Shown here piece after piece: positions 7,986 to 11,683 of a stretch of 64,000 nucleotides of DNA. Within the stretch, counting starts at the first letter, position 1, and the number at the start of each line of letters is the position of its first letter. The stretch spans positions 310,001 to 374,000 of the forward strand of contig NW_027191468.1 of NCBI RefSeq assembly GCF_011745625.1, written 5' to 3'. The position numbers and the translations under genes are program-made. The notes beneath the pieces were generated by a model. The model saw nothing but the letters and a program-made list of their open reading frames with translations, had not been told where the DNA came from and did no database searches. The DNA comes from Cladosporium halotolerans (lineage: Eukaryota).

Positions 7986-9353
7986 ATGTCGGCCGCCCTC
8001 ATCACCAATGTCGACAAAAAGCAGTTGCGCACGACCAAATTCCCGCCCGAATTCGAGCAACAGGTGGACATGGAGAAGGTCAATGTTCCTGTGATCAAGA
8101 AATGGGTCGCAGATGAGATCGCGAGGATACTGAACAACGACGACGACATTGTGACCGAATTGATCTCGAACGTACTCGAGGAGTCCAAGTTTGTGAGTCT
8201 CGAAGCTTTCATACGCCGACGTAACACAGTAAGAGCGTGTCTGACTAGATACCTCGATAGCCCAAGATCAAAGAACTTCAAATCATGATTACAGGCTTCC
8301 TTGACAAGGAAGCTGCGCCATTTGCGAAAGCTTTGTGGAAGCTGCTGCTTTCTGCACAGAACGGAGCACAAGGTGTTCCGCAAGAGCTACTGGAAGCGAA
8401 GAAGGCTGAACTGGAAAAAGAGAGGGTGAGGATAACCAGGACAGTTCGAGGTTACCGTCATTGTATACTGACGAAGCTTACAGCTCGAAGACGAGAAAGT
8501 CCGCGAGGAAGCCATGAAGCGTCAAGAAGCCGATCGAGAGCGTGATAGAGAGCTCGGAAGGATACGTGAACGCGAGCGCGGCGACCGCAGAGGTGACAGA
8601 GATGATCGCGGTGACCGGGATTACAGAGGTCGCGGTGGGAGAGGCGGCGATCGTTTTGATGACAGGCGAGGGAGCTATCGCGATTCACGGTCTCCTCCCA
8701 GGATCCGCGACGACCGATACAGAGGCCCTCCCTCAACGCGCGGAGTTGACAGCTACGTCCCAGGGCGCTCCTACCGAGACGAACCTCAACGAAGACGCCG
8801 CTCGCCCTCCTACGATCGTGCACGCGCACGTAGCCGCTCCACTCCTCGCCGCCGTCGCCGCCGCAACACATCCAGCGTATCCCGCTCGCCTTCTCCACCC
8901 CGCAAAGCTCGCAGACGGTCGGTATCGCGAGATTCTATCGACCGCAAGGCCGACAGCAAGAGCAAGAGCAAGCGCGGTGACGAAAGCCGCAGATCCAGAT
9001 CCCGTTCGCGTTCTCCTGCATATGAACGTCGCTCACGATCGCCCAGACGTCACCGCCAATCCTACCACGCCCGCCGCCGAAGATCTCCCTCTGAAGATAG
9101 CCGCTCCCCACCACCCAAAAGGCGTAACCGCCGTGCGTCCCCATCCCGTTCACGGTCACCGCCCCGTAGGCGTCGTGACATCTCAAGCTCGCGCTCCCGC
9201 TCGCGCTCGCCTCCTCGTAGAAGCCACAAGAGGGACGACAATGAGCGACGCGACAAGCGCAGGATCAGCCCAGGTAGTACAAGTCGCAGCCGGAGCCACA
9301 GCCGCGACAACGCACCGCCGAAAAAGAAGCAAGAAGAGGATGGGGATAAGTAG
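7986..9353 (+). CDS. PWI-domain, Ser/Arg-rich splicing factor (SRRM1/SRm160-like), 3 exons
   Basis: TKFPPEFEQQVDMEKVNVPVIKKWV...NDDDIV, then ITGFLDKEAAPFAKALWKLLLSAQN...GVPQELLEAKKAEL (PWI), followed by a long RS/SP tail. Introns at ~8193-8260 and ~8426-8483. Confidence 0.9.
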
Positions 9354-9540
9354 GCCTCTGCTGCCCAATTCTGCCCATAGATGTCAAAGCATGGCTTTTG
9401 TCGCGAACAAAATCGCGAGCTCGCTGCCACTGTGCACATAGCTAGCTGCATGTTGTGTAGCTGTAATGAATAAACTACGTCCACTGAGCTGAAGGAACGC
9501 ACGCTGAGTTGTCATGTCATGTCATTTACTATGGTATCAT

Positions 9541-9732
9541 CTAAGAAACGGAGCACTTGAACGGCAGGCCGCAAGGACCCTCGCTCTTGTTCTCTTCTCT
9601 CGGCTGAGGTTGGGTGGAAGTCTGCTGCTCAGCGTTGGTGTCCTTTGCACCACCGTTCGCAGCAGCGCCACCAGCAGCACCCGCAGCCGGTTGGGCCGAA
9701 ACCTCTTGCTTCCCAGCTTCGCTGCCTTGCAG
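9541..9732 (-). other. Putative stop-codon-readthrough extension of the quinone reductase (63 codons ending ...GPCGLPFKCSVS-TAG)
   Basis: In frame directly after TGA CTG, with no stop for 189 nt, and ends in a CaaX-type motif. Confidence 0.65.
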
Positions 9733-10523
9733 TCACTGGAAGTTGACCTTGGCGACGGCCTCGTAGAAGGCCTTGCCCTGAGCCTTGGCGACGTCGAGCT
9801 CCTTTGCGGTGGGCTGACGGGAGCCATCGCCGCTCTGTATGTTCACGTTAGTAGTTGCTCTTCCTCATCTCATCGTCGAGGGGTGGAAACTTACGGCGAA
9901 GGTGCCGGCACCCCAGGCGCTGCCACCACGGACCTCGGAGTTGTCGCCGAGGAGGTGGAAGGTGGTCTTGTAGCCGAGCGGCACGTAGATGATGCCGTGG
10001 TGAGCGAGGGTGCTCATGGCGGCGATAGCAGTGCTCTCCTGTCCACCACCCTGAGTAGCGGTGGAGACGAAGAGACCGGCGTACTTGCCCCAGAAGGCAC
10101 CGGTCTGCCACTGGCCGCCGGTGCGGTCCCAGAACGCGCGCCACTGGGCGGGGAAGTTGCCGTAGCGGGTGGGGATACCCAGAAGGAAAGCATCGTACTG
10201 CTCGAGGACGGAGGGGTCGGAGAGGGTGGGGATGGAGTCGTCCTTGGCCGGGGCGTGCATCTTGTCGAGAACCTCCTGCGGCAGGGTCTCCTGGACGCGG
10301 TAGAGGTCGACGGAACCGCCGGCAGACTTGATGCCCTCGGCCTCAGCCTGGGCAAGAGTCTGCACGTGGCCGTACATGGAGTACTGAGAGGGTGATGTTA
10401 GTAGCTGATCATGATCGAGCCGTATGCCGGCATTGGGTGTTCAATGGCCGGGCGGCGAGACTTGGGCTCAATGCCACTGAATGTGGGCGTACGTACGAAG
10501 ACGATGGCAATCTTGGGAGCCAT
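9733..10523 (-). CDS. Flavodoxin-like NAD(P)H:quinone oxidoreductase, WrbA/Pst2/Ycp4 family (Alt a 7/Cla h 7-like), ~205 aa. Exons 10523-10497, 10383-9895, 9834-9733.
   Basis: [46 protein letters not shown] and [19 protein letters not shown]...KVNFQ-TGA. Both introns are canonical. Confidence 0.95.
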
Positions 10524-10620
10524 GGCGACGATTTGCTGGAGTTTGATGGAAGATTAGGGTAAGAAGAAGATATTGGAGGTAGCGGTGTAAGGAAAGAGGC
10601 AGCGGTAGCGAACGGAGGCC

Positions 10621-10634
10621 TATTTTATATATGG
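10621..10634 (-). promoter_or_regulatory. Probable TATA box of the quinone reductase gene
   Basis: Minus-strand CATATATAAAATA about 100 nt upstream of ATG 10523. Confidence 0.5.
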
Positions 10635-11683
10635 AACAGCTCTGCTCTTACATTATGCGCTCTCGAAGCTACGGGCAACAGCCCACGTCCCGCCGACGTT
10701 TCGGCATGAGAAACGCCCCTCACTAAACCCGATCCAGCGGAATTTGTACACAATTACCCATTCCGAGCGTGTCTTTCGGATTAATTAACCATCATATAAG
10801 AGAAGCTTGCTGCTGACGGCACATCGCTACCGAAGCGCTAGCAGCGCCTCTCCGCGCGACCTCTGTAATCATCCATAGCAACGGATTCCCTCCGCACCAA
10901 ACCACACACATTTCCAGTGCTTGGGTAAGCGTGATAAATCTGCCACCCGGATTCCACATCCAGCTAGGCGGGCAGAGACATCCTATCAGGCCTGCTATCC
11001 GAGCTACTCCGGCCAGGTCCGAGTCGCATGCCCAACAATAGAGGACAAAGCTCTTGTGGAGCATTCTGAGTGCGGCGCTTGCGGTACCTGCATAATCTGG
11101 CTAATTAGTCCGGCCACTGCCACATCGCAGCACGACAACCGTGGAACGCACCGCGGAGCTGAACGCGGAGGCGGTCAACGATCACAGTATCGTGCCCACC
11201 AGTTCTCCGGAAGTCTGTGGCATGACTCTCTTTGGTGGAAATGACCTTTCAAGTCCTCTAATAAGAGATGGTAGAACTTCAAGCTCGATCTAGATTACGG
11301 AGGGGTTTCGTAAATGCTGAGAGTATCCAGCTATTCCCAATATACATCAATATATCACCGTACTACCACCTCTCCTGGACCCCCTGAAGGTGGCTTTCCG
11401 GTGGAGGACCTACTAAGGTGCTGGCTGGTAGGCCACAAAATTCCAGATACGTGGTGAGCGGGGATCGCTCGGAGCATGGGCCGCTGGAGGCTGGCGGCGC
11501 TGGCCTACCCTGACTTCACATTGACTGCTTGGTGCTTGCCTCTTTGGGAAATTCCCGCCACCCATTCTTTTCTGAGTTTGCCTCCATTCAAGGGCGCTTC
11601 ATTTGTATTCTGTGTCGCTGGTGCTGTGAGCTTCGGTAAAAAACGGCGCCAACTGTCTTGGCCTTTCCAAGCGCGTTTCCATC

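Follow-up and report, generated by a model that had tools for sequence, protein, structure and literature searches.

Does the stop codon of a fungal quinone reductase gene always end the protein, or does it also precede a conserved tail that would anchor a second form of the enzyme to membranes? This question is raised by a minus-strand gene of Cladosporium halotolerans, located in a stretch of 64,000 nucleotides (nt) that corresponds to positions 310,001 to 374,000 of contig NW_027191468.1 (assembly GCF_011745625.1). This whole stretch is referred to as the window, and all coordinates are those of the window unless a locus is named. The gene encodes 205 amino acids (aa) in three exons of 9, 163, and 33 codons, as derived from the sequence and from RNA contigs. 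On the minus strand, the third exon ends with AAG GTC AAC TTC CAG, followed by TGA at 9735–9733. Past this stop the same frame continues with CTG CAA GGC for 63 sense codons (9732–9544) up to a TAG at 9543–9541. The C-terminus of this tail is EGPCGLPFKCSVS, with the last cysteine at position −4 and another cysteine six residues upstream. What the initial annotation had stated of the stop, the frame, the 63 codons, the terminal CSVS, and the second cysteine was borne out letter for letter. Conceptual readthrough would yield a product of 269 aa, consisting of the flavodoxin-like core and an extension with a CaaX box at its end. In our assessment, it is likely that readthrough at UGA-CU makes such a minor long isoform, with a predicted lipid-anchor tail, besides the soluble enzyme. 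Taken alone, the openness of the tail in the window is a weak argument, as the frame was also open in 12.5% of 20,000 sequences obtained by mononucleotide shuffling of these 189 nt, and a second frame is likewise open across this region. That the open tail exceeds chance follows from its conservation in other loci and not from the window alone. The G+C content is approximately 0.6 along the tail and approximately 0.5 in sequence intervals that lie mostly past the TAG.

The comparison with other loci was based on a protein query comprising exon 3 and the tail with an X at the stop. The tblastn query used for confirmation also included the tail and had an X at the stop; hence, the identity of the stop was not selected for. 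The 80 best-scoring of 270 confirmed hits were fetched as metagenome loci, and each was translated in the frame of the core. The complete layout (core, stop, in-frame tail, GPCG..CaaX, stop) was present in 50 of these 80 loci, a proportion that is biased upward and does not represent a prevalence because the confirmation query contained the tail. After removal of four identical copies, the remaining 46 loci and the window formed the comparison set of 47 non-identical sequences. Across exon 3 and the tail together, the loci shared 31–72% identity with the window. The initial annotation had staked its proposal on orthologues sharing an open extension with a terminal CaaX box, and these 46 non-identical loci do share it. 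Proteins with this layout also bear names from Dothideomycetes, Leotiomycetes, Sordariomycetes, Coniocybomycetes, and unplaced leotiomyceta as well as from Penicillium and Aspergillus. Annotated proteins of the latter two genera, 247–256 aa in length, have C-termini which align to the window tail and end in EGPCGLPKKCTIQ or similar. In protein searches, a single Penicillium tail retrieved three proteins, and a profile of 44 tails retrieved 72.

The first stop codon was TGA in all 47 sequences. The second stop was TAG in 26, TAA in 14, and TGA in 7 of them. The codon directly following the first stop was CTA in 32 sequences, CTG in 10, CTC in three, and TCG and ACG in one each. Counted from the stop, C at +4 and T at +5 each occurred in 45 of the 47 sequences and A or G at +6 in 44, and a preference extended to A at +8 (38/47), T at +9 (36/47), and G at +10 (40/47). 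The CT after the stop appears to be constrained at the nucleotide level, because the leucine adjacent to the stop was always encoded by CTN (45/45) and never by TTR (0/45), whereas the leucine inside the GPCGLP motif was encoded by TTG in 22, CTG in 14, TTA in five, and CTA in four cases (TTG or TTA in 27/45). In Ustilago maydis, UGA followed by CUA, with UGA-CU as the core, is sufficient for efficient readthrough; replacement of the UGA by UAG or UAA lowers it, and the efficiency is set mainly by the first two nucleotides 3′ of the stop (Stiebler et al., PMC4207609). The window has the UGA-CU required in Ustilago: its stop (9733–9735) is followed by the context CTG CAA GGC AG (positions +4 to +14; 9722–9732), with the core C at +4 and T at +5. 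The conserved TGA-CTR that was to be looked for in relatives is therefore real (CTA or CTG after the TGA in 42 of 47), and the TGA is not a strain-specific nonsense allele, as none of the relatives in the comparison set has a sense codon in its place.

In the 28 loci which had the anchor sequence and lacked an in-frame tail motif, the stop was TGA in 11, TAG in nine, and TAA in eight cases. These 11 TGA loci include the three with decayed tails that are described below (L041, L045, and L048). Another three (L015, L049, and L052) keep TGA-CTR, of which L015 and L052 run off the contig end. The third, L049 (589–1211), has an intron-less core and TGA-CTA, and its frame stops after 15 codons; it is probably a chimeric contig, with a downstream reading frame that resembles an unrelated GTPase.

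Contigs assembled from sequencing runs placed the stop and the tail within the mature transcript. The contigs of three runs (X2, X4, and X10) were taken as RNA because they lacked introns, and those of run X1, which carried introns, were treated as DNA. An 895-nt contig of X10 comprised positions 10578–10497, 10383–9895, and 9834–9511 and spanned everything from the TGA to the TAG. Exon 1 (10497–10523; ATG at 10523–10521, encoding MAPKIAIVF) has its end set by the contig joint 10383→10497 in X2 and X10. Exon 2 (9895–10383; 163 codons) encodes the WrbA-type flavodoxin-like core (translation P0001), and the coding part of exon 3 (9736–9834; 33 codons) ends with the residues AVAKVNFQ at residue 205. 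Intron 1 (10384–10496; 113 nt, GT..AG, seen as CT..AC on the plus strand) was skipped in X2 and X10, and intron 2 (9835–9894; 60 nt, GTAAGT...CAG) was skipped in all three runs. In the contigs of these runs, no joint was observed at or near the TGA, which was retained, and no alternative letter was listed at 9733–9735. The single listed difference within the tail, C>T at 9628, was synonymous (GAG>GAA). Nine short metagenome contigs contained an unbroken frame of 203–204 codons from MAPK to the TGA, and eight of the nine also carried the tail. Compared with the genomic locus L031 (86–92% identical), locus L017 lacked two introns (66 and 59 nt, both GT..AG) and was colinear over the TGA and the tail. 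Since intron-less contigs continue from the TGA to the TAG with nothing removed, the transcript holds the stop and the whole tail; at least in its major form, the mature mRNA retains the TGA and has its end outside the tail. A poly(A) site inside the extension, which the initial annotation had regarded as fatal to its proposal, is not borne out by the data, because the 895-nt spliced contig reaches position 9511. Splicing or editing of the stop, for which a check by RNA sequencing had been advised, was not seen at the consensus level in the contigs of the three runs.

Four explanations other than readthrough were each poorly supported: alternative splicing, adenosine-to-inosine (A-to-I) editing, a dead relic, and selenocysteine. 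Alternative splicing survives best, and we nevertheless regard it as improbable. It would mean that a minor mRNA loses a short in-frame intron containing the TGA, with no recoding involved. The window offers 40 in-frame GT..AG pairs of at least 36 nt which span the stop, approximately 50 public gene models join the core to the tail by a splice, and rare spliced isoforms could escape the contig data. However, the candidate donors in the window (GTCAGC, GTCGCC, GTCAAC, and GTGACT) differ from those of the real introns (GTACGT and GTAAGT), and none of the 40 pairs has a consensus donor or appears in the RNA contigs, in which the real introns are spliced without any joint near the stop. The TGA was also kept in eight intron-less contigs. 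A conserved micro-intron was considered as well, since a donor-like CAG GGT AAG at the codons for QGK is combined with a CTAG just past the stop in some sequences, and was rejected because this combination of a GGTAAG-like donor and CTAG occurs in only 4 of the 47. Indeed, no splice donor is conserved, because the base before the TGA is G in only 27 of the 47 sequences and the glycine codon of QGK is GGT in only seven. Splicing would require neither a TGA in 47 of 47 sequences, nor CT at +4 and +5, nor a frame that is open from the first codon past the stop.

At the QGK glycine (window 9773–9781), 40 of the 47 sequences use GGC and seven use GGT. This bias toward GGC may reflect the avoidance of a cryptic donor (CAG|GTAAG), because GGT followed by AAG would create a consensus donor inside the exon.

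The public gene models with spliced tails do not agree on a common intron. Their junctions vary from model to model and often cut conserved residues of the core, deleting parts of the last helix (P0026, P0053, P0055, P0057–P0059, P0062, and P0078). Other public models start the tail at the G before the TGA and have H or P as the junction residue. This is the expected pattern if the predictor places its junction at the G in CAG|TGA or CCG|TGA. P0028 shows one or the other of these two features. In a few metagenome proteins (P0014 and P0029), W is found at both stops, consistent with a gene call in which TGA is read as W. As judged from these sequence patterns, the coding signal of the tail probably misled gene prediction, and the public spliced models are artefacts of annotation. 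In most other genomes, the annotated protein is the form of 203–205 aa alone.

Slightly less probable again than splicing is A-to-I editing, by which UGA would become UGG (Trp) and a stage-specific long form would be translated from the edited mRNA. Such editing of stop codons has been described for the sexual development of some Sordariomycetes. The layout analyzed here spans more classes than this group, and the conserved C and U at +4 and +5, which are a determinant of readthrough, are unexplained by editing. Furthermore, UAG would be equally editable, yet the stop is TGA in all 47 sequences, and no T>C at 9733 was listed in the three RNA-type runs, whose contigs miss rare variants. In favor of editing, stop-loss editing was reported in Fusarium graminearum (PMC13123824), and the annotated relative P0025 has a W at the position of the stop. 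This Sarcosagium model is one of three annotated proteins in which a sense residue apparently occupies the stop position, the others being the Penicillium models P0016 and P0019 with S; in P0019, the following leucine is replaced as well. From their sequences, these three protein models are possible true stop losses, which would make the long form constitutive.

The comparison of the tails allowed us to distinguish a translated sequence from a decaying one. The ratio of nonsynonymous to synonymous substitution rates (dN/dS) was estimated from 44 pairs with at least 55% tail identity, with dS being saturated in four. It ranged from 0 to 0.50 in the 40 of 44 pairs that could be computed, similar to the core exon and in line with the value below 1 that the initial annotation had proposed to look for. 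The frames +1 and +2 were open across the tail in only 11 and two of the 47 sequences, respectively. The tails were 42–95 aa long, and in every sequence the second stop came immediately behind the last of the four CaaX residues. In an alignment of 44 tails, G86, C88, G89, and C94 were invariant and P87, L90, and P91 were at least 90% conserved, and the G, P, C, and G that are invariant in the end module were encoded by the full range of their synonymous codons. On the basis of these alignments, the tail was shown to be under purifying selection as a protein in many divergent Pezizomycotina-type sequences.

The same data make it very improbable that the tail is a relic, that is, the remainder of a Ycp4-like long ancestor which gained a nonsense TGA and whose sequence behind the stop is now 3′ untranslated region. 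Long forms of the Ycp4 type do exist, the open 63-codon frame of the window is not significant by itself (see the shuffling result above), and the G+C content at third codon positions (GC3) is lower in the tail than in the core. Decay was indeed observed in some lineages (L041, L045, and L048). However, sequences with as little as 31% and at most 72% identity to the window preserve the frame, the end module, and a CaaX box at exactly its place, and residues that are invariant vary synonymously. In diverged pairs, the 150 nt past the second stop are far less alike, with a nucleotide identity of 0.37–0.73 over the longer sequence.

The three lineages with decay served as natural controls. In L045 (355–700) and L048 (2097–2450), a frameshift changes the end module to EGSCRLPGKRAIL, in which the CaaX cysteine is replaced, and in L041 (2094–2300) the end module is absent. 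The contexts of the stop in L045, L048, and L041 are TGA-CTC, TGA-CCC, and TGA-CCA, respectively. None of the three loci has CTA or CTG after the stop and two of the three lack the CU, compared with CTA or CTG in 42 of the 47 sequences with maintained tails. Hence, the CU context was lost or weakened where the tail had decayed.

Least probable of all, to the point of being negligible, is that the UGA, although a selenocysteine codon, encodes selenocysteine here, because no Rfam family, including the selenocysteine insertion sequence element, matches positions 9200–10700 at E ≤ 1, the conserved downstream CU is not a feature of selenocysteine insertion, and fungi lack the selenocysteine machinery (PMC4207609).

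Programmed readthrough, the proposal of the initial annotation, is in turn strongly supported by the conserved TGA-CT, by purifying selection on the tail, and by the uncut RNA contigs; at the protein level, we infer it from this comparative and RNA evidence.

The tail itself consists of a linker and an end module. The linker (9580–9732; 51 codons) is of low complexity and rich in A, G, Q, E, T, P, and K. Pooled over the 47 sequences, the linkers contain 16% A, 12% T, 11% E, 9.5% G, 8.5% P, and 8.4% K and are almost devoid of aromatic residues. AlphaFold2 modeled the core of the long protein P0025 with high confidence, and residues 216–250 had a predicted local distance difference test score (pLDDT) below 50. 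The tail linker is thus predicted to be disordered. The end module GPCGLPFKCSVS (9544–9579) contains the upstream cysteine (9573–9571) and the CaaX box CSVS (9555–9544), directly followed by the TAG that would terminate the long isoform (9541–9543). A cysteine at −4 is present in all 47 sequences, and a second cysteine six residues upstream of it in 45. The a2 position is occupied by I in 32, V in 14, and L in one sequence, and X is most often L (16) or M (15), followed by S (10), A (3), Q (2), and I (1). S, M, A, or Q as the X residue favors farnesyltransferase and L favors geranylgeranyltransferase I, and a cysteine near a CaaX box is a common site of S-acylation. With these properties, the end module resembles a signal for lipidation.

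A short variant of the module, SEGPCGCTVA, occurs in L026 (2004–2267) and L037 (289–555). In this variant, the CaaX cysteine comes straight after GPCG and the two cysteines are two residues apart. A more distant family member of 267 aa (P0061), which starts with MKVAIVYY, has an in-frame tail ending in SGCGVKCVIV. Its sequence hints that the tail with two cysteines and a CaaX box is older than the form interrupted by a stop.

The core in front of the stop belongs to a well-defined enzyme family. Exon 2 alone (P0001) matched the NCBIfam equivalog models NF002999 with 169.9 bits (cut-off 141) and TIGR01755 with 164.6 bits (cut-off 132.5). A full-length relative that is 91% identical (P0008; 205 aa, ending in KVNFQ) reached 213.5 and 211.5 bits, respectively. 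The solved chain nearest to P0008 was 5mp4, 'Protoplast secreted protein 2' (yeast Pst2), with E = 5e-73. Relatives bear database names such as 'Minor allergen Alt a 7', 'NADH-quinone oxidoreductase Pst2', and 'flavoprotein WrbA', and also Cla h 7. By sequence, the product belongs to the type IV NAD(P)H:quinone oxidoreductases, in the flavodoxin-like WrbA / Pst2 / Alt a 7 family. From this family membership, it would be expected to bind flavin mononucleotide, to reduce quinones, and to form tetramers.

Together, these features suggest the following mechanism. Most ribosomes would terminate at the UGA (9735–9733) and release the soluble 205-aa enzyme. A fraction of the ribosomes would read on because the UGA sits in the leaky fungal context UGA-CU(G/A). 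These ribosomes would decode the UGA by a near-cognate tRNA and continue for 63 codons, yielding the isoform of 269 aa. For UGA, insertion of Trp, Arg, Cys, or Ser has been reported, with W and S among these residues (PMC4207609). In the long isoform, a disordered linker rich in Ala, Thr, Glu, Gly, Pro, and Lys would end in the module GPCGLPxKCaaX. As a prenyltransferase substrate motif, CSVS with X = Ser would mean farnesylation, and the invariant cysteine six residues upstream would be a likely site of S-acylation. The long isoform would thus be anchored to a membrane, like yeast Ycp4. WrbA-type proteins are oligomers, and the solved entry 5mp4 has eight chains; a small number of anchored subunits could therefore hold mixed oligomers at the membrane, the site of the quinone substrates.

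Several observations weigh against this interpretation or limit its reach. The occurrence and the frequency of ribosomal readthrough, the lipidation of the cysteines, and the recruitment of oligomers are all conclusions by inference, with lipidation predicted from the motif. None of the listed runs is recorded as RNA, and Logan contigs drop rare variants, so that a minor spliced or edited mRNA could escape. The approximately 50 public models that reach the tail through an annotated splice also count against readthrough, although we read them as probable artefacts. The upward bias of the 50 of 80 loci has been mentioned, and the number of independent lineages among the loci was judged from divergence. 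Folding of 120 nt 3′ of the stop in the window and nine loci revealed no shared helix (z-scores from −2.73 to +1.72). A stimulatory RNA structure downstream of the stop was therefore rejected as a candidate source of any stimulation beyond the short context. Finally, GC3 in the window is 0.59 in the tail (9544–9732) versus 0.87 in the core exon (9736–9834). This low value fits rare translation with weak selection on codon usage, and also a weaker coding constraint. A similar drop of GC3 was noted in L001, L004, L009, L017, L021, and L032.

A tail with a CaaX box that appears when a stop is removed has a counterpart in hepatitis delta virus. In its large delta antigen, RNA editing removes the stop (UAG to UGG) and exposes a farnesylated CaaX tail. 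The likeness lies in the removal of a stop that adds a CaaX tail and switches function; however, the viral case depends on RNA editing and not on readthrough, is not cellular, and involves a short tail. The closest parallel for the recoding itself is the readthrough that exposes type 1 peroxisomal targeting signals (PTS1) in Tpi1, Art1, and Rpe1 of Ustilago and in human LDHB and MDH1, which uses the same UGA-CU core, often as CUAG (PMC4207609). It also follows the same logic, in that a minor extended isoform with a terminal targeting signal provides dual localization, and it is conserved among fungi (PMC4207609). In contrast to PTS1 readthrough, the tail described here carries a CaaX box and an upstream cysteine and not a peroxisomal tripeptide, is 42–95 aa long with a disordered linker, and belongs to a WrbA/flavodoxin-like enzyme with the membrane surface as its presumed destination.

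With respect to the enzyme, the nearest relative in layout is yeast Ycp4, the long paralogue of the flavodoxin-like proteins Pst2/Pst1/Pst3/Rfs1. In Candida albicans, Ycp4 has a C-terminal extension of approximately 90 aa which ends in a CAAX box and is likely lipid-modified (PMC4556627). The parallel to Ycp4 that was drawn in the initial annotation holds as far as it was checked, in that an extension of tens of residues in the same family ends in a CaaX motif (PMC4556627). However, Ycp4 is a separate gene whose extension is ordinary coding sequence, whereas in the window one gene carries its extension behind a stop, and the two are likened by layout and not by orthology. Because the TGA separates core and tail, the gene of the window would work like Pst2 and Ycp4 in one and is not a Ycp4 gene.

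The initial annotation had further suspected that readthrough used for prenylation was undescribed. For this family, the suspicion stood: no published readthrough in the WrbA/Pst2/Ycp4 family was found in a literature search that left out most subscription journals and Table S1 of PMC4207609, which covers the TGA-CT open reading frames (ORFs) of Ustilago. As a general statement it calls for a qualification, as a prenylation signal has been predicted in the readthrough extension of one Drosophila gene (PMC3840789) and of Arabidopsis MT1C (10.1101/2021.11.09.467898). As far as these sources indicate, both cases are motif-scanner predictions in a single species, with no sign that the motif is conserved or was put to a test, whereas here the motif and the leaky context are conserved across divergent sequences. 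We lean slightly toward a wider reading, in which a single gene of the Pezizomycotina would use ancient UGA-CU readthrough to maintain a fixed small anchored fraction of the enzyme. The leakiness of the stop would set both the number of anchors per oligomer and the share of the enzyme at the membrane. If so, this would be the first conserved cellular case of readthrough that serves lipidation and not peroxisomal import.

Next to the gene, a convergent ORF on the plus strand (8472–9353), rich in Arg/Ser/Asp repeats, ends approximately 190 nt from the TAG of the tail. The RNA-type contigs of X2 (9250–9643) and X4 (9250–9780) extend from this ORF into the tail or exon 3. Because of these contigs, the 3′ ends of the transcripts of the quinone reductase gene and of the convergent ORF may overlap.

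So far, functional readthrough in fungi has mainly been known as a route to the peroxisome, and a conserved case that adds a lipid anchor would widen the uses of recoding. It would also offer a clean natural system for studying how readthrough is tuned, with a short context, a clear signal, and a measurable localization. The finding further points to a systematic problem of annotation, as most genomes miss the tail and approximately 50 models reach it by splices that vary and are probably spurious. In Candida albicans, flavodoxin-like proteins provide protection from oxidative stress and promote virulence (PMC4556627). Database names place the minor allergens Alt a 7 and Cla h 7 in this family, whose localization data and knock-out phenotypes would have to be read differently if there is a membrane-bound isoform that has stayed hidden. 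If the proposed readthrough is true, recoding achieves within one gene what takes budding yeasts two, Pst2 and Ycp4.

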